Source: Shigella phage vB_SsoM_113. Taken from it: a stretch of 64,000 nt of DNA. How positions within the stretch are numbered: the first letter of the stretch is position 1; each line of letters starts with the position of its first letter. The stretch lies in the sequence record LR746311; one strand, given 5' to 3'. A program made the translations under genes and the position numbers. The notes below the pieces were generated by a model. The model was not told the DNA's origin. It searched no databases and saw only the letters and a program-made list of their open reading frames with translations. Shown here one piece after another: positions 1,798-52,814 of the stretch.

Positions 1798-1805
1798 TAT
1801 AAATA
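1798..1805 (+). promoter_or_regulatory. T4-type late promoter box TATAAATA
   Basis: Exact TATAAATA about 40 nt upstream of the first CTS-protein gene. Confidence 0.6.
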
Positions 1806-1845
1806 CAGTAGTATATTAAATCCACGAATTAAAACAGGAAATAAG

Positions 1846-2319
1846 ATGAAATCATATGCTCAATTTTTAAATGAAGCGGTGTTAAATGAAGCATCTAGCA
1901 CCGAAATTCAAGCTGTCGCAAAAGCAGCCATTGCAGCGGGTAAATATTCCTATAAAGATGCTTCTGACGAATCACGATTCCAGTTTGCTCGCGACATGAA
2001 AGCAGAAGGATTTACGGGAAATGCAGTTAGTATGGCCTGGAAAAGTTTAGTTGCTACTGGCGCTGCTTTTGCAAAGGCTTCGGGTAAACCTGCTCCTAAA
2101 GCAGATCCTAAAGCTACACAAGAAAAAAATATCGTTAAAGGAATTATCGCTAAATATGAAGCTATCCTTAAAGAGCTTTTAGTAATCAAAACCGAAGGCC
2201 AAAAGTTAGCCCGTGCTTATAGTTTCAAAGATAATCCGCATGTTCACTCTCTTGAGTATGTTGAAGACATCCAAAAAATTATTAAAGACCGCATTTGGTC
2301 TGCTAAACAAATCAAATAA
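1846..2319 (+). CDS. internal head protein-like (capsid targeting sequence at N-terminus)
   Basis: N-terminus MKSYAQFLNEA matches the T4 internal-protein targeting pattern MKTYQEFIAEA (recalled); late promoter upstream; terminator downstream. Confidence 0.7.
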   Translation: MKSYAQFLNEAVLNEASSTEIQAVAKAAIAAGKYSYKDASDESRFQFARDMKAEGFTGNAVSMAWKSLVATGAAFAKASGKPAPKADPKATQEKNIVKGIIAKYEAILKELLVIKTEGQKLARAYSFKDNPHVHSLEYVEDIQKIIKDRIWSAKQIK

Positions 2320-2327
2320 CATTCTTA

Positions 2328-2355
2328 ACCCCAGCCGAAAGGTTGGGGCTTTTTA
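2328..2355 (+). terminator. rho-independent terminator, near-duplicate of 1768-1796
   Basis: ACCCCAGCC-GAAA-GGTTGGGGCT plus TTTT; 3' half identical to the terminator at 1778-1798. Confidence 0.7.
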
Positions 2356-2444
2356 GTTTGAATCACTCGGATAACGCTGTTACGGATAATAACAAAGTAA
2401 TAAATAATTAATAACCAACCGATAGATTATTTCAAGGATTTTAA

Positions 2445-3008
2445 ATGAAAACCTATGCCGAATTTTTAACCGAAGCAGCAAAATTACCATCTGAAGCAGA
2501 TCTTACTAAAGTATTCTTCCACTTGGACCCAAAAGACCGCGGCGATTTTCTTAAGTGGAAAGCTAAAGCTATTGAAATGTACAACATCGATAATAGTTCT
2601 TTTACAATGAGTCAAGAAAATAAATTCAATAAAGCATTTTTCAAAATTTCTAAGAAATTGGCATCTGGCGCTCAGGTTCCTAAATCTGTATTAGCTACTC
2701 CTGAACGTGCACCTGTTAAAATTTCTAAGAATATGTTCGACACTAAAAAATACGTTAATGCTTTGAATAAAGCTCTTGATGCATTGGATGATGCAAAGAA
2801 GGCAGCCCGCGATCTTCAAGACGTGTACACCGATTTTGACCGCAAAACTAAAGGTTCTATTTCAAATAGCGAACGCAATAGTGTAAGTGTTTATTCTGAT
2901 AGCCTTGATGTTCTTGGCGATGCGTATACTGAAATTAAAAATCGTATTAACACTGCATCTAAGCTAAAAGCTGCTGCAGAAGCTATAATAACTAAACTAG
3001 GTAAATAA
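2445..3008 (+). CDS. internal head protein-like (capsid targeting sequence at N-terminus)
   Basis: N-terminus MKTYAEFLTEAAKLP; basic and Lys-rich; terminator hairpin follows. Confidence 0.7.
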   Translation: MKTYAEFLTEAAKLPSEADLTKVFFHLDPKDRGDFLKWKAKAIEMYNIDNSSFTMSQENKFNKAFFKISKKLASGAQVPKSVLATPERAPVKISKNMFDTKKYVNALNKALDALDDAKKAARDLQDVYTDFDRKTKGSISNSERNSVSVYSDSLDVLGDAYTEIKNRINTASKLKAAAEAIITKLGK

Positions 3009-3016
3009 TTTTAAAT

Positions 3017-3041
3017 CCCTATCTAAATGATAGGGCTTTTT
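3017..3041 (+). terminator. rho-independent terminator
   Basis: CCCTATC-TAAAT-GATAGGG followed by CTTTTT. Confidence 0.6.
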
Positions 3042-3164
3042 GGTATTTAGGCCTTTCTGGACCTCTCTAGGCATCATTTAGTTTATACCCTTTATAATAT
3101 ATTATCCTATCCTTTAATTGCCCATCCCTGCCCTAGAATTCCCTAAAAATTTTTTCACAAAACT

Positions 3165-3194
3165 GTTTACATCTCTGTTCTTCCATGGTACTAT
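3165..3194 (+). promoter_or_regulatory. T4-type early promoter (GTTTAC ... TGGTACTAT)
   Basis: A/T-rich upstream TTTTTCACAAAA, -35 GTTTAC, 18-bp spacer, extended -10 TGGTACTAT; part of a cassette repeated elsewhere. Confidence 0.7.
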
Positions 3195-3237: not shown

Positions 3238-3501
3238 ATGGATAATTACGGCGAACTGTTCAACTTCTTTATGAAATGCGTTTCAGAAGATTTCGGTCGT
3301 ACAGTGAATGATATTAAAGTTATCGGTCCTGATCATCCGATGTTTGAAACTTACGCAGTAATGGGTAATGAAGACGGTCAGTGGTATACTGTAAAAGTTG
3401 TGATTAATATGTTCACAGCAGAAGGTTATGTTAAACTGTCTTCTAAAGTTTACCACGATAACGACGAAATCGCAGAAGAATATTTCAATAATATGAAATA
3501 A
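3238..3501 (+). CDS. hypothetical protein (87 aa)
   Basis: ATG at 3238 with GGAG 6 nt upstream; the track ORF from 3118 would run through its own promoter. Confidence 0.6.
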   Translation: MDNYGELFNFFMKCVSEDFGRTVNDIKVIGPDHPMFETYAVMGNEDGQWYTVKVVINMFTAEGYVKLSSKVYHDNDEIAEEYFNNMK

Positions 3502-3502
3502 G

Positions 3503-3531
3503 TTTACACAGGCTCATGATTGAGATATTAT
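3503..3531 (+). promoter_or_regulatory. T4-type early promoter with flanking 10-bp dyad
   Basis: GTTTAC at 3503-3508, -10 TATTAT; perfect inverted repeat ACAGGCTCAT / ATGAGCCTGT at 3508-3517 and 3530-3539. Confidence 0.6.
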
Positions 3532-3892: not shown

Positions 3893-3922
3893 GTTTACAA
3901 TCTATTAAAAACGTGATATTAT
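3893..3922 (+). promoter_or_regulatory. T4-type early promoter
   Basis: GTTTAC at 3893-3898, about 18-bp spacer, -10 TATTAT. Confidence 0.55.
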
Positions 3923-5903: not shown

Positions 5904-6388
5904 TTTTAAAAACTCGCTGGTATGATTTAGATGATGGGGACGATGGCATTTCAGTTGATAGAGTTGACTGGAGCGGCTGTTCTGAAGATACAAAGAAACG
6001 ATTAATTAGGGAGTTTAGAATGGGATATCAAGCAGTTAAGCCATCTACTGTAACAGATGATAAATTCGTGTGTATTCATAATGGTCGTGCTAAGTTAACG
6101 AATGCTGAATGGTTCACAGATAAGATTATGATTCTGTGGTATATCATTAGTCTTCCTGTGTCATCATTCGTATTTTACTTTTTTATAAAAAATCCAATGG
6201 ACAGAATAGGAGATTGGATTCTTTTAACCATACTTGTTAATATTTTTACAGCATCAATATTATCAGGAATATGGTACATGTTCATTGAAATGCCATGGCG
6301 GATGCGCAGACAACAAAAGATTTTTGATGAAAAGAAATATGCTCAAAATTTAAATAATTTTATCACTGAATGCAGGAAATTAAAATGA
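5900..6388 (+). CDS. membrane protein (162 aa)
   Basis: ORF track; two hydrophobic helices; tail ...ECRKLK. Confidence 0.6.
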   Translation: MILKTRWYDLDDGDDGISVDRVDWSGCSEDTKKRLIREFRMGYQAVKPSTVTDDKFVCIHNGRAKLTNAEWFTDKIMILWYIISLPVSSFVFYFFIKNPMDRIGDWILLTILVNIFTASILSGIWYMFIEMPWRMRRQQKIFDEKKYAQNLNNFITECRKLK

Positions 6389-6825
6389 AAACATTATCAG
6401 CTGGTATTATCTTTATGACAGAAGATAAAGATTTATTTATGGGACGAGTTACCGGTTCTCGTAAACCTGGAATGATGGCACATCGCTGGGATATTCCAAA
6501 GGGGCGTGTAGAAAGTTCTGATTTGAATGCACTGGAAGCTGCAAAAAGAGAATGCTCAGAAGAGACTGGTTTTATCGATTATAATCCAGACCTTCTAGAA
6601 GACTTAGGTGTATTTAAATATTCTAGTAATAAAGACTTACAGTTATTTTATTATACGATTCCAGTAGAGCATGAGATGTTTAGAAATTGCCATTGCGAGT
6701 CTTATTTTGAAAATAAAGATGGCGTTATGATTCCAGAGATGGATGCTTTTGCTCTTATTCCTCGTACTCAGTGGCAATATGTGATGGGTCCTTCACTTTA
6801 CCGAATAATGAACAACCTCTTTTAA
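6385..6825 (+). CDS. nudE: Nudix hydrolase
   Basis: Nudix box GRVESSDLNALEAAKRECSEETGF; immediately upstream of e, as T4 nudE (e.1). Confidence 0.75.
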   Translation: MKTLSAGIIFMTEDKDLFMGRVTGSRKPGMMAHRWDIPKGRVESSDLNALEAAKRECSEETGFIDYNPDLLEDLGVFKYSSNKDLQLFYYTIPVEHEMFRNCHCESYFENKDGVMIPEMDAFALIPRTQWQYVMGPSLYRIMNNLF

Positions 6826-7356
<531 letters not shown>

Positions 7357-7363
7357 AGCTATT

Positions 7364-7392
7364 TACTTTCTCCTAGAATTGTGATAGTATAT
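7364..7392 (+). promoter_or_regulatory. early promoter-like element upstream of denV
   Basis: -35-like ATTTAC, 17-bp spacer, TGTGATAGTAT extended -10. Confidence 0.5.
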
Positions 7393-7415
7393 TCACAGTT
7401 ACTTGGAGGGATAAA

Positions 7416-7832
7416 ATGACTCGTATTAATTTGACTTTAGTATCTGAACTTGCTGATCAACATTTAATCGCAGAATACCGTGAATTGCCGCGTGTTTTTG
7501 GTATAGTTCGTAAGCATGTGGCAAACGGTAAGCGCGTTAAAGATTTTAAAATATCTTCTAAATTTATTTTAGGTTCTGGTCATGTTACTTTCTTTTACGA
7601 TAAGTTAGAATTTTTGCGAAAGCGTCAATCGGACATTATAACGGAATGCTTAAAACGCGGGTTCAGTATAAAAGATACTGAAGTTCCTGACATCAGCGAT
7701 ATTCCAGTAGAATGGAAAAATGATTATAATCCATGCAAATCAGCTATTAAGTTGAGTCAACAACGACTCGATGAAAAAATTTTAATGAAGCCACACTGGT
7801 ATAAGTATTACGGCAAAAATATTTACATTTAA
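7416..7832 (+). CDS. denV: endonuclease V (pyrimidine dimer DNA glycosylase)
   Basis: 138 aa; N-terminus [17 protein letters not shown]...[10 protein letters not shown] matches recalled T4 endoV. Confidence 0.95.
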
Positions 7833-33977: not shown

Positions 33978-35180
33978 ATGAAAGTATGCATTTTTATGGC
34001 TCGAGGTCTTGAAGGTTGTGGCGTAACTAAATTTTCTCTTGAGCAGCGTGATTGGTTTATTAAAAATGGTCATGAAGTAACTTTGGTTTATGCTAAAGAT
34101 AAATCATTTACCCGTAATTGCGCGCATGATTATAAATCATTTTCAATTCCGGTTTTATTGGCAAAAGAATACGATAAAACACTTAAGCTGGTAAATGATT
34201 GTGATATTCTAATTATCAATTCAGTTCCTGCTACTTCAGTAGAAGAAGACACTATTAATAACTATAAAAAAATTATTGATAACATTAAACCTTCGGTTCG
34301 TGTTGTAGTTTATCAACATGACCATTCTTCTCTTTCTTTGCGCCGAAATTTGGGATTAGAAGAAACTGTTCGTCGAGCTGATGTTATTTTTAGTCATTCT
34401 GATAATGGTGATTTTAATAAAGTTCTGATGAAAGAATGGTATCCAGAAACAGTTTCTCTGTTTGATGATATTGAAGAAGCACCGACTGTATACAACTTTC
34501 AGCCTCCTATGGATATTGCGAAGGTTCGATCAACCTACTGGAAAGATGTTTCTGAAATTAACATGAATGTCAACCGTTGGATTGGTCGTACGACTACATG
34601 GAAAGGTTTTTATCAGATGTTTGATTTTCACGAAAAACATCTTAAACCTGCAGGACTAAGTACTATTATGGAAGGTCTGGAACGTTCTCCAGCGTTCATT
34701 CCTATTAAAGAAAAAGGAATTCCATACGAGTATTATCGTCTTCATCAAGTAGACCAAATTAAAATTGCTCCTAATTTGCCGACGCAAATTCTCGACCGTT
34801 ATGTAAATAGCGAAATGCTTGAACGCATGAGTAAATCCGGATTTGGTTATCAGTTGAGTAAGTTGGACAAAAAATATCTACAACGTTCTTTAGAATATAC
34901 TCATCTCGAGCTTGGTGCATGTGGAACAATTCCAGTATTTTGGAAATCTACTGGCGAAAATTTAAAATTCCGTGTTGATAATACTCCGTTAATTTCTCAT
35001 GATAGCGGTATCGTTTGGTTTGATGAAAATGACATGGAATCAACATTTGAACGTATTAAAGAACTGTCATCTGACCGAGCTCTTTATGACCGTGAACGCG
35101 AAAAAGCTTATGAATTTTTGTATCAGCATCAAGATTCAAGCTTCTGCTTTAAAGAACAGTTTGACATTATTACAAAATAA
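33978..35180 (+). CDS. a-gt: DNA alpha-glucosyltransferase
   Basis: 400 aa; MKVCIFMARGLEGCGVTKFSLEQRDWFIKNGHEVTLVYAKDKSF matches recalled T4 alpha-gt. Confidence 0.92.
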   Translation: MKVCIFMARGLEGCGVTKFSLEQRDWFIKNGHEVTLVYAKDKSFTRNCAHDYKSFSIPVLLAKEYDKTLKLVNDCDILIINSVPATSVEEDTINNYKKIIDNIKPSVRVVVYQHDHSSLSLRRNLGLEETVRRADVIFSHSDNGDFNKVLMKEWYPETVSLFDDIEEAPTVYNFQPPMDIAKVRSTYWKDVSEINMNVNRWIGRTTTWKGFYQMFDFHEKHLKPAGLSTIMEGLERSPAFIPIKEKGIPYEYYRLHQVDQIKIAPNLPTQILDRYVNSEMLERMSKSGFGYQLSKLDKKYLQRSLEYTHLELGACGTIPVFWKSTGENLKFRVDNTPLISHDSGIVWFDENDMESTFERIKELSSDRALYDREREKAYEFLYQHQDSSFCFKEQFDIITK

Positions 35181-46180: not shown

Positions 46181-46921
46181 ATGATTAACGATTATATGAC
46201 AGTTGAAGAAATCCGTCTTGATTTGGGTCTTGCATTAAAGGAAAAAGATTTCGTAATTGATAAAACTGGTGTTAAAACTATTGAAATTATTGGTGCATCA
46301 TTTGTAGCAGATGAACCTTTTATTTTTGGCGCTCTTAATGATGAATACATTCAGCGTGAACTTGAATGGTATAAGTCTCAAAGTCTGTTTGTTAAAGATA
46401 TTCCAGGTGAAACACCGAAGATTTGGCAACAGGTAGCATCTTCTAAAGGCGAAATTAACTCAAATTATGGTTGGGCCATCTGGTCAGAAGATAACTATGC
46501 CCAGTATGATATGTGTTTAGCTGAACTTGGTCAAAATCCTGATTCTCGACGTGGTATCATGATTTATACTCGTCCATCTATGCAGTTTGACTACAATAAA
46601 GATGGTATGTCAGATTTCATGTGTACGAATACCGTACAGTATCTGATTCGTGACAAGAAAGTCAATGCAGTTGTTAATATGAGAAGCAATGACTGCTGGG
46701 CAGGCTATCGTAATGATTATGCATGGCAAAAATACGTACTAGATAAATTAGTATCTGATTTGAATGCAGGCGACCCATCGCGGCAATATAAAGCAGGTTC
46801 TATTATATGGAACGTTGGAAGTCTTCATGTGTACGAAAATCAGTTTTATTTAGTTGACCATTGGTGGAACACTGGTGAAACTCATATTGCTAAAAAGGAT
46901 TATACTGGAAAATGGAAGTAA
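46181..46921 (+). CDS. 42: dCMP hydroxymethylase
   Basis: 246 aa; thymidylate-synthase-like fold sequence matching recalled T4 gp42. Confidence 0.95.
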   Translation: MINDYMTVEEIRLDLGLALKEKDFVIDKTGVKTIEIIGASFVADEPFIFGALNDEYIQRELEWYKSQSLFVKDIPGETPKIWQQVASSKGEINSNYGWAIWSEDNYAQYDMCLAELGQNPDSRRGIMIYTRPSMQFDYNKDGMSDFMCTNTVQYLIRDKKVNAVVNMRSNDCWAGYRNDYAWQKYVLDKLVSDLNAGDPSRQYKAGSIIWNVGSLHVYENQFYLVDHWWNTGETHIAKKDYTGKWK

Positions 46922-47553
46922 ATGTGCCACATGTTTATAAGTATAAACATCCTAAAACTAAAAAGTGGTATATAGGAAGTCATGATGGTCACAACCCAAA
47001 TTATGATGGTTCGGGTGTAGTTTGGCAACATGCTAAAAAGAAATATGGAATAAAATCCTTTAATAAAGAAATATTATATGAAGGACCAATGTTTAGACAG
47101 GTTGAAGAAATTATTTTAACTTGTTTAGATGCTGCTAATTGTCCGGATTCATATAATTTAAAGAATGAAGCATGGGGAGGAAGTTTTCCAGGCAAATTAA
47201 ATGGAATGTACGGTAAAAAACTATCTCCAGAAGAAAGATATAAGTGCGGAAATGCCTTTCGTGGAATCAAGCGTCCTGATCATTCTAAAAGAATGAAAGG
47301 CGAAGGTAATCCAATGTATGGTAAAAATGAGCAGGCATATGGAATTATAAATCGAGCAAAGGAAAATTCTGGTAAAACTTATGAAGAAATTTTTGGCGCA
47401 GAAAAAGCTAAAATAATTAAAGAAACGATGTCTAAAAATCGTAAAGGAAAACCTCATAATTTGATAGAAAAAATATGTCCGCATTGCGGACTAAAAGGAC
47501 GTGGGCCAAATATGACAAGATACCATTTTGACAAATGTAAGGCACTTAAATGA
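46912..47553 (+). CDS. GIY-YIG homing endonuclease-like protein (seg-type)
   Basis: N-terminal HVYKYKHPKTKKWYIGSHDG...YDGSG GIY-YIG motif; NUMOD-like GKK repeats; C-terminal CPHCG zinc knuckle; between 42 and the glycosyltransferase. Confidence 0.7.
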   Translation: MEVNVPHVYKYKHPKTKKWYIGSHDGHNPNYDGSGVVWQHAKKKYGIKSFNKEILYEGPMFRQVEEIILTCLDAANCPDSYNLKNEAWGGSFPGKLNGMYGKKLSPEERYKCGNAFRGIKRPDHSKRMKGEGNPMYGKNEQAYGIINRAKENSGKTYEEIFGAEKAKIIKETMSKNRKGKPHNLIEKICPHCGLKGRGPNMTRYHFDKCKALK

Positions 47554-48392
47554 TTCAATTCGTAATTCCAAGCTATCAACGCGTAGGGGCAGTTTCTGCC
47601 CTTGATATGTTTCCATCTGATTATGAACCACATATTGTAGTACGTAAACATGAAGAAAAAGCTTATTATGATGCTTACGGGTCTAGAGCCAAAATTATAA
47701 CTATTCCTGATGATGTCAATGGAATTGCTGGTACTCGTAAAGCAATTACTGATATGTATGCAGGTCAACGAATTTGGATGATTGATGATGATACTACTAT
47801 TCGTATGAGTTCAATGCGAAAAAGAGATGATCGTCGCTGCGTAGATAAAATTAATCAGTTAACTCGTGAACAGTTCTATGAATTGATTCAATACGTCGAA
47901 GATGCCATGGATTGTGGGTATTATCACGGTCATGCTCGTCTACCTATTTTTAAAATTACTTCATCTTGGGGTAATTATCGTGAAAATTCATATGGATTCA
48001 CGAATACTTGGTATGACCTCGGGAAACTTACAACAGAACAAATTGGATATGGAAAAATTGATTTATGCGAAGATATGTATGCATTTCTCAATTTAATTAA
48101 TCAAGGTTATCCGCATTTGGCCTTGTTCAAATATCTGGTTGTATCTGGAAAAGCGCAAGCTCCAGGCGGATGTAGTTCAATTCGTAGTAATTCAAAACAT
48201 AATAGAGCTCTTGAGCAAATCAATAGAGAGTTTCCAGAGCAAGCTCGTTGGAAAACATCGAATATTGAAAAGAGAAAATCGTTGGGTGAAGAAGACGAGC
48301 CATTAAAGGTTCTTCGCATGTGTGTTTCGCGCAAAGAAAAATCAGAAGCGTTTCATAAGTTTAATGCTATTCATCCAATAGCAGTTGATTAA
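47550..48392 (+). CDS. glycosyltransferase, not T4 beta-gt-like (280 aa)
   Basis: N-terminal VIPSYQR and WMIDDD (DxD) motifs typical of GT-A glycosyltransferases; occupies the beta-gt locus. Confidence 0.65.
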   Translation: MIQFVIPSYQRVGAVSALDMFPSDYEPHIVVRKHEEKAYYDAYGSRAKIITIPDDVNGIAGTRKAITDMYAGQRIWMIDDDTTIRMSSMRKRDDRRCVDKINQLTREQFYELIQYVEDAMDCGYYHGHARLPIFKITSSWGNYRENSYGFTNTWYDLGKLTTEQIGYGKIDLCEDMYAFLNLINQGYPHLALFKYLVVSGKAQAPGGCSSIRSNSKHNRALEQINREFPEQARWKTSNIEKRKSLGEEDEPLKVLRMCVSRKEKSEAFHKFNAIHPIAVD

Positions 48393-52649: not shown

Positions 52650-52814
52650 ATGAAAACATATAAAGAATTTATTAAAGAAGATATGGTAGCTGGAGATTCA
52701 GGTGGTAATCCTGAAAATATCTCCACTGGAACAACGTCAGGTGCTGTAGTAAATAAAGGTCCTGAACAGATTCCTAAAAAGAAAAAAGAGGAATCTAAAG
52801 AAAAAGAAGAGTAA
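52650..52814 (+). CDS. small protein with capsid-targeting-sequence-like N-terminus (54 aa)
   Basis: Hand-translated MKTYKEFIKEDMVAGDSGG...KKKKEESKEKEE; SD GAGG upstream; ends 2 nt before the gene 61 start. Confidence 0.5.
   Translation: MKTYKEFIKEDMVAGDSGGNPENISTGTTSGAVVNKGPEQIPKKKKEESKEKEE

Follow-up and report, generated by a model that had tools for sequence, protein, structure and literature searches.

Two candidate internal head proteins on late-promoter cassettes between rnaC and e.8 in Shigella phage vB_SsoM_113

Do two small neighbouring genes of a T4-like phage encode internal head proteins (IPs) at a site where T4 has none, and if so, what would these proteins do in the next host? 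The question is raised by a 64,000-nt stretch of DNA from Shigella phage vB_SsoM_113 (record LR746311), referred to below as the window. The open reading frames (ORFs) 1846-2319 and 2445-3008, here called gene A and gene B, had been described in an earlier note on the same DNA as having the N-terminal leader of T4 internal head proteins and as candidates for injected counter-defence proteins. Both ORFs were found at these coordinates with the N-termini described, the product of gene A beginning MKSYAQFLNEAVLNEAS and that of gene B MKTYAEFLTEAAK. We consider it probable that A and B are paralogous internal head proteins that are made late, packaged, cleaved and injected, and that most plausibly protect the incoming DNA.

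Leaders, products and protein family of genes A and B

The locus is made up of the following features, all on the + strand:

1768-1797, +: hairpin terminator with T-run ending the tRNA-rnaD-rnaC unit (10-pair stem, -20.3 kcal/mol, z -4.3)
1798-1805, +: late-promoter box TATAAATA, exact, 48 nt upstream of the ATG of A
1836-1841, +: Shine-Dalgarno-like AGGAAA of gene A, conserved across related loci
1846-1875, +: codons 1-10 of gene A, leader of the capsid-targeting-sequence (CTS) type (Y4, F7, L8, E10)
1846-2319, +: gene A, 157 aa, PHROG 2280 (E 3e-60)
2329-2356, +: hairpin terminator with T-run after A (-16.2 kcal/mol)
2399-2406, +: near-consensus late box AATAAATA (7/8), 46 nt upstream of the ATG of B
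2445-3008, +: gene B, 187 aa, PHROG 2280 (E 1e-53)
3017-3043, +: hairpin terminator with T-run after B (-10.5 kcal/mol)

The CTS of T4 IPIII (MKTYQEFIAE) has been dissected by amber-suppressor analysis, which assigned residues 4 and 7 to targeting and residues 8 and 10 to processing, and this 10-residue leader suffices to package foreign proteins in T4 heads (PMC9026906). The CTS is removed by the prohead protease, gene product (gp) 21, and the IPs are injected alongside the DNA (PMC9026906; PMC3012670). In both proteins of the window we found the targeting residues, an aromatic residue at position 4 and Phe 7 (A MKSYAQF, B MKTYAEF), as well as the gp21 site L/I-x-E at positions 8-10 followed by a small residue (A LNE↓A, B LTE↓A; arrows mark predicted cuts). 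The resemblance to the T4 leader is therefore borne out, with Y4, F7, L8 and E10 retained in A and B alike. While the leader of B reads MKTYAEFLTE↓AA, that of A (MKSYAQFLNE↓AVLNE↓A) has two L-x-E sites, the second (LNE↓A) at residues 13-15.

When the window is translated in all six frames, the pattern M[KR][ST][YF]xxF[LIV]xE has three matches, all of them at starts of ORFs of at least 50 aa, where the chance expectation is a mean of 0.003 for mononucleotide shuffles and 0 for residue-shuffled ORFs. These matches are A, B and the homologue of T4 gene 61.1. The latter is a 54-aa ORF (52650-52814, +) directly upstream of primase gene 61 and begins MKTYKEFIKE↓DMVAGD (MKTFKEFIKE in T4); the remainder of the protein is acidic and of low complexity, and the gene is surrounded by genes for early replication functions.

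After cleavage at E10, A is predicted to comprise 147 aa (16.0 kDa, isoelectric point (pI) 9.50) and B 177 aa (19.7 kDa, pI 9.54); for comparison, the mature T4 proteins IPII* and IPIII* (183 aa) have pI values of 9.56 and 9.65. An AlphaFold2 model of A, built from a shallow alignment, is of moderate confidence (mean pLDDT, the predicted local distance difference score, 71.7). It places a helical N-domain at about residues 18-71 (pLDDT 80-90), a linker at 76-87 and a long C-terminal helical hairpin at 88-154. The linker of A is rich in Lys, Pro and Ala (e.g. GKPAPKADPKA; listed at window positions 1921-2100). B is predicted to be all-helical with a central linker, its model (pLDDT 49) being usable for secondary structure only.

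A and B are distant paralogues with about 26% identity and belong to PHROG 2280, which is labelled "unknown function". A-type genes are present in 511 phage records at 50-99% identity and B-type genes in 164 records, all at a minimum of 86%. Among the carriers of A are RB32, AR1, PP01 and BASEL Bas42, and among those of B RB14 and pSs-1. Conservation across these records together with dN/dS (the ratio of nonsynonymous to synonymous substitution rates) of 0.05-0.13 for A and 0.07-0.26 for B, indicating strong purifying selection, rules out chance ORFs. Searching 5.8 billion clustered proteins yielded 14 clusters for A and 11 for B, and 15 of 1.84 billion representatives matched a profile; all of these matches stem from T4-like phages or phage-like contigs, and none tells a function. 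This small family is found solely in T4-like phages of Enterobacterales, with named members in phages of Escherichia, Shigella, Salmonella, Citrobacter, Klebsiella, Yersinia (fHe-Yen9-01) and Cronobacter (VP8, Muldoonvirus).

The leader M-x-x-[YF]-x-x-F-[LV]-x-E is kept in every member of this family, including the Klebsiella, Yersinia and Cronobacter proteins at ~25% identity. Since the leader is conserved while the mature regions drop to this level, selection would seem to act on the leader itself, and we regard its persistence as the best comparative evidence for such selection. An hhalign comparison (probability 96%, E 2e-9) places JS98 orf135 (205 aa, rnaC-e.8 site, leader MKTYNEFLNESVLNEAG) in the family as well. 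A basic Lys/Pro/Ala linker is likewise found in every member and is far longer in JS98 orf135 (KPAKPAKAPVSKPAAQTKVAAPKPTPKAEPVKEAPKPK); it is reminiscent of histone-H1-like DNA-binding tails and could bind DNA.

We noticed an extended 15-residue leader, MKxYxxFLxExxLNE↓A with tandem L-x-E sites, in A (1846-1890), in a 93-aa IP of phage Kelasse (locus L001, 7453-7734) and in JS98 orf135 (locus L014, 5385-6002). As the mature domain of the Kelasse protein is unrelated to that of A, the leader would seem to be an exchangeable module. In protein P0013 (182 aa, NCBI) the A-family leader and N-domain (1-56) are fused to an unrelated C-terminal part, and it may represent a domain-shuffled variant. 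Directly behind its tRNA genes, the distant T4-like Cronobacter phage vB_Cdu_VP8 (OQ361773.1; locus L016, 3786-4510) has two CTS-bearing genes in succession, a 72-aa ORF (MKSFTEFLTE↓S) and then a 169-aa family member (MKSFSSFLNE↓G), both annotated as hypothetical. A hairpin and an exact TATAAATA precede this pair.

Putative late cassettes at a polymorphic site

The exact late box that had been pointed out before the first ORF is indeed located at 1798-1805 and is conserved in related loci. We compared 13 such loci, including a Dhakavirus, in which the first gene after the rnaC terminator is A in 11 cases and a membrane-protein ORF in two (L009, L011). This gene is preceded by an exact box at -34 to -48 in 11/13 loci and by AATAAATA in 2/13 (L007, L008). 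Upstream of B no exact late box was found, only the 7/8 variant AATAAATA at 2399-2406, downstream of the terminator; all six B-carrying loci (6/6) have AATAAATA or GATAAATA at -46 or -42. Exact copies of TATAAATA number 7 in the window, all on the + strand, with 10.1 expected. Because this count is not above chance, only the position and conservation of the box are taken as evidence. Two of the copies form a tandem pair just upstream of late gene e (6828-6835 and 6841-6848, +), and another (577-584, +) is located within the end of a segB-like ORF, 4 nt before tRNA-Ser.

On the + strand no sigma-70-like site was found upstream of A or B. Further downstream, e.8, e.7 and e.6 are each preceded by a near-identical sigma-70-like promoter, TTTACA-17-TAnnAT (3166-3194, 3503-3531 and 3894-3922, +). 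With their late boxes and flanking terminators, while e.8, e.7 and e.6 carry sigma-70-like promoters, A and B would form a late-transcribed, terminator-insulated islet within an early region. One sigma-70-like promoter per small gene, as seen for e.8, e.7 and e.6, is the pattern described for regions of promoter-early stem-loop (PeSL) cassettes.

In T4 the hairpin after rnaC leads straight into the sequence found here behind the terminator of B. The T4 sequence downstream of its single hairpin aligns here after 3035, and collinearity is back from about 3036. As the T4 flanks meet at one hairpin, the window holds a 1.24-kb insertion. It consists of two units of 559 and 687 bp. Each opens with a hairpin and its T-run, continues with a late box 42-48 nt ahead of the start codon, a Shine-Dalgarno sequence and the gene, and ends at the following hairpin. 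These hairpins lie within copies of a 40-nt direct repeat at 1765-1804, 2324-2363 (88% versus copy 1) and 3011-3050 (65%). Copy 1, with the hairpin 1768-1797 that is also present in T4, marks the upstream boundary of the insertion, copy 2 contains the terminator after A, and copy 3, with the terminator after B, marks the downstream boundary. In the RB32 record the A homologue is noted as "flanked by 34 bp imperfect direct repeat". The module "hairpin, T-run, (G)TATAAATA, about 30 nt, AGGAAA, ATG" is located before most cassettes in the 13 loci and also before the VP8 pair.

Among T4 and its relatives the rnaC-e.8 site is occupied as follows:

Empty: T4, T2, PST
A alone: several loci
A and B: this window and five others
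A and a membrane-protein ORF: two loci (L010, L012)
A membrane-protein ORF and a JS98-type member: two loci (L009; L011, which is JS98)

A and B are thus missing from T4, T2 and PST and variably present in relatives, as expected of non-essential, variable genes. We propose that they behave as mobile late cassettes, gained and lost when the repeated hairpin sequences recombine.

The 8 kb around the two genes show 93-98% identity with many Tequatrovirus genomes. The neighbouring features are:

30-581, +: segB-like homing endonuclease, cut by the window start
588-1089, +: six tRNAs (Ser, Thr, Met, Tyr, Asn, Arg)
1106-1456, +: ORF of 116 aa between tRNA-Arg and the rnaD homologue, PHROG 3355, unknown function
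About 1456-1716, +: homologues of the stable RNAs rnaD and rnaC, 92.8% identity with T4
3238-3501, +: e.8 homologue, followed by the e.7 and e.6 homologues
6370-6825, +: nudE
6862-7356, +: lysozyme gene e
7416-7832, +: denV

The earlier note had placed the two genes beside the tRNA cluster and at a locus differing from that of T4 ipII and ipIII. The first statement is approximate, as the last tRNA ends at 1089 and the ORF 1106-1456 and rnaD/rnaC intervene before A. The second holds: in T4 ipIII and ipII occupy the interval between e and denV, whereas here e is directly followed by denV and the slot 7357-7415 is empty. In close relatives this slot contains one small ORF (a 303-nt ORF in PBM-1, the 93-aa IP in Kelasse). 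The endonuclease at 30-581 is of the GIY-YIG/NUMOD3 segB type and lies inside the tRNA cluster, whose set of tRNAs is unlike that of T4. At the position of ORF 1106-1456 there is no gene in T4, and a 351-nt ORF is annotated beside tRNA-Arg in T2. In an Rfam search of this DNA the tRNAs were the only matches, no Rfam family fitting the rnaC/rnaD region.

A proposed route into the next host and its alternatives

We infer from the leaders and late signals how A and B may be packaged, cleaved and injected. The strong terminator after rnaC would shield both genes from early transcription. Late transcription would start at TATAAATA for A, and at the 7/8 variant box or by read-through for B, as proheads assemble. 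The leader, with its aromatic residue 4 and Phe 7, would then dock A and B onto the gp22 scaffolding core, so that they become enclosed in the prohead. There gp21 would cut after Glu10 of L-x-E, with a second possible site in A after Glu15. The predicted mature N-termini are Ala11 (AVLNEASSTEIQAVAK) or Ala16 (ASSTEIQAVAK) for A and Ala11 (AAKLPSEADLTK) for B. The basic mature proteins of about 16 and 19.7 kDa would reside among the packaged DNA and be ejected with it into the next host, where the glucosylated hydroxymethylcytosine (glucosyl-hmC) DNA would be protected from an immediate nuclease defence, for instance a GmrSD-like type IV system. Packaging and processing are likely in our estimate.

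Which defence the proteins might meet is suggested by work on the T4 IPs. Each of Ip1, Ip2 and Ip3 blocks a different GmrSD type IV restriction system; five more GmrSD systems are active against T-even phages, have no known inhibitor and were not inhibited by ip4-10 (PMC12373910). The window encodes the enzymes from which the substrate of such systems can be predicted:

33978-35180: alpha-glucosyltransferase
46181-46921: dCMP hydroxymethylase
47550-48392, +: TAGT-like glycosyltransferase of 280 aa at the T4 beta-gt position (Pfam PF20691, E 2.6e-9)

With an alpha-glucosyltransferase, a dCMP hydroxymethylase and a second glycosyltransferase, the DNA of this phage should contain glucosyl-hmC, the GmrSD substrate. 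A TAGT-like enzyme at the beta-gt position suggests that the sugar modification of hmC is of the T2/T6 type rather than of the T4 type. By analogy with the T4 proteins, a specific anti-defence role of A and B is a real possibility, which we put somewhat below an even chance. A wider proposal, to which we give still less credit, is that rnaC-e.8 is an unrecognised third internal-protein locus of T4-like phages. It would be occupied by one divergent family on late-promoter stem-loop cassettes (PHROG 2280, with A, B, JS98 orf135 and the Klebsiella, Yersinia and Cronobacter versions), and A and/or B would be injected inhibitors of defences that have no known phage antagonist, e.g. one of the five orphan GmrSD systems.

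Several observations weigh against A and B being packaged protective proteins. Nearly all database entries, including every listed A or B record, are labelled "hypothetical protein", the exception being one UniRef entry from Klebsiella phage KPKp titled "Internal head protein"; the source of that name is a paper annotating by BLAST without proteomics, so that the label lacks experimental support. Literature searches returned no reports of virion proteomes, N-terminal sequencing or injection for any family member. The KPKp paper and a paper on Yersinia fPS phages report no proteomics, and two phages were set aside, fHy-Eco03 because it is not T4-like and phiR1-RT because it is not among the close homologues of protein P0010. 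The low dN/dS values describe a slowly evolving family, and inhibitors engaged in an arms race often diversify rapidly. Neither sequence nor fold similarity connects A and B with known anti-restriction proteins: Pfam and NCBIfam scans gave sub-threshold noise only (e.g. Cytochrome b562, TraA), and Foldseek with the model of A returned nothing at E < 0.5 in PDB and only family members in BFVD. The fold comparison has to be read with the moderate confidence of the A model and the unusable B model in mind, and a test for similarity to known inhibitors carries little weight in any case, given that Ip1-3 are mutually dissimilar. Further points on this side are that B is without an exact late box and that gp61.1 (MKT[YF]KEFIKE) is listed in the T4 record as hypothetical and not as a virion component. 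A CTS-like leader on a gene of the early region means that the motif alone may not prove packaging; gp61.1 may be a packaged peptide that has gone unrecognised, or else the motif is insufficient evidence for packaging.

The main rival to a protective function is a general DNA-associated role in the head, in which packaged A and B would help in charge neutralisation and condensation of the DNA or in its ejection and would replace the missing IPII and IPIII. The e-denV interval without ip genes, where T4 has two, fits such a replacement, as does the closeness of mature B to mature IPIII in length and charge (177 aa, pI 9.54 and 183 aa, pI 9.65). So do the linkers of all family members, which we take to be histone-H1-like, and the contacts of T4 IP lysines with DNA phosphates (PMC3012670). 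Strong purifying selection would also suit a housekeeping protein. However, the genes are dispensable in nature, being missing from T4, T2 and PST, with A present in 511/1110 records matching the 8-kb query; some phages, such as Kelasse, have A and B in addition to other IPs; and all three T4 IPs, once held to be structural, proved to be specific GmrSD inhibitors (PMC12373910). We therefore judge a general physical role to be rather unlikely, while treating it as a serious competitor.

Two other explanations fare worse. A and B could be late cytoplasmic proteins that stay unpackaged, their leader being an inherited N-terminal module with no targeting function. The same kind of leader on gp61.1, in the early replication region, and the lack of proteomic evidence of packaging in our literature searches speak for this. 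Against it, the leader is the most conserved segment while the mature parts are at ~25% identity, a pattern that points to selection on the leader; the first 10 residues of IPIII package foreign proteins (PMC9026906); and late-only transcription, as judged from boxes and terminators, would coincide with prohead assembly. We consider this explanation improbable. Finally, A and B might simply be T4 IPII and IPIII, or another named IP, at a shifted position. Their sizes are like those of known IPs, B with 187 aa compared to 193 aa for IPIII and A with 157 aa equalling PST IpIV. However, in BLASTP and hhalign comparisons with T4 IPI, IPII and IPIII only residues 1-12 matched (the first 10-12), so the near-identity to IPII or IPIII that the earlier note had named as fatal to its proposal does not exist. 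With the leader removed there was no match at E <= 0.05 to PST IpIII-VI, T2 Ip7 or the Kelasse IPs. Leader-only similarity, and the presence of A and B in Kelasse besides its own, separately annotated IPs, refute a mere shift in position, to which we assign next to no probability. Late-made, packaged and injected proteins that protect the incoming DNA thus remain our preferred interpretation of A and B.

Significance and relation to known systems

Among sequenced T4-like phages, about 500 carry a member of this CTS-bearing family, which is annotated nearly everywhere as "hypothetical"; many of these phages were isolated or studied for phage therapy. Such a widespread and largely unannotated family is an obvious and cheap place to look for new anti-defence functions and determinants of host range. 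The cassettes of hairpin and late box suggest a route by which injected proteins may be exchanged between phages. Were the family recognised, the labels of PHROG 2280 and of hundreds of GenBank entries could furthermore be corrected.

Genes A and B share with ipII and ipIII the 10-residue leader architecture (MKTYQEFIAE↓A in T4) and basic mature products (pI about 9.5). Like these, they are non-essential and variably present and run in the direction of the surrounding early genes, and they are predicted to be late-type genes. In contrast to ipII and ipIII they are located downstream of rnaC and not between e and denV, and no similarity is detectable past the leader. Whereas GmrSD targets have been demonstrated for Ip2 and Ip3 (PMC12373910), a target of A and B is proposed by analogy. 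The paradigm for the function proposed here is IPI* (Ip1), an injected inhibitor of the GmrSD system of E. coli CT596 with a CTS-type leader processed by gp21. The leader of IPI has 19 residues (cut after ...ITE), compared to 10 in A and B, and IPI* is a compact 76-residue alpha/beta fold (PMC3012670), while A is predicted to be all-helical with two domains.

CTS-bearing polymorphic IPs have been a known kind since 1994, and Repoila et al. reportedly described the polymorphic ip genes of T-even phages, from ip4 upward, in that year. All annotated IPs that we examined (PST IpIII-VI, T2 Ip7 and the Kelasse IPs) have the CTS-type leader. The polymorphic T-even ip genes (IpIV-VII of PST and T2) resemble A and B in having non-homologous mature domains behind a common leader and in lying at hypervariable loci; the extended form ...FLxExxLNE↓A of gene A recurs in the 93-aa Kelasse IP and in JS98 orf135. 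The annotated IPs examined are encoded at the ipI locus, from 57B to trna.4, or in the vicinity of e and denV, A and B at a third site, rnaC-e.8, and in the records inspected the latter are not annotated as IPs save for the Klebsiella phage entry mentioned above. Neither leader string of A and B is contained in the supplements of Silas et al. 2025, which name ip4-10 without sequences. The family, its third-locus location and the late-cassette structure appear to be new relative to the annotated IPs compared here; one of the ip genes of Repoila et al. 1994 may belong to this family.

With regard to genome organisation the closest parallel is provided by the PeSL cassettes, which Comeau et al. 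are said to have treated for T4-type phages in 2014. Like A and B, PeSL cassettes are single genes flanked by repeated promoter and stem-loop elements and are transcriptionally self-contained, and differences in presence or absence between close relatives break in the repeats (PMC2839356; Arbiol et al. 2010). Stem-loop repeats with indel breakpoints were also found here, with three 40-nt copies in the window and a single copy in T4. In contrast to PeSLs, the element of A and B carries the late box TATAAATA just after the hairpin T-run and no early promoter of the sigma-70 type. If rnaC-e.8 is indeed a third internal-protein locus, these cassettes would be the late-gene counterpart of PeSLs.

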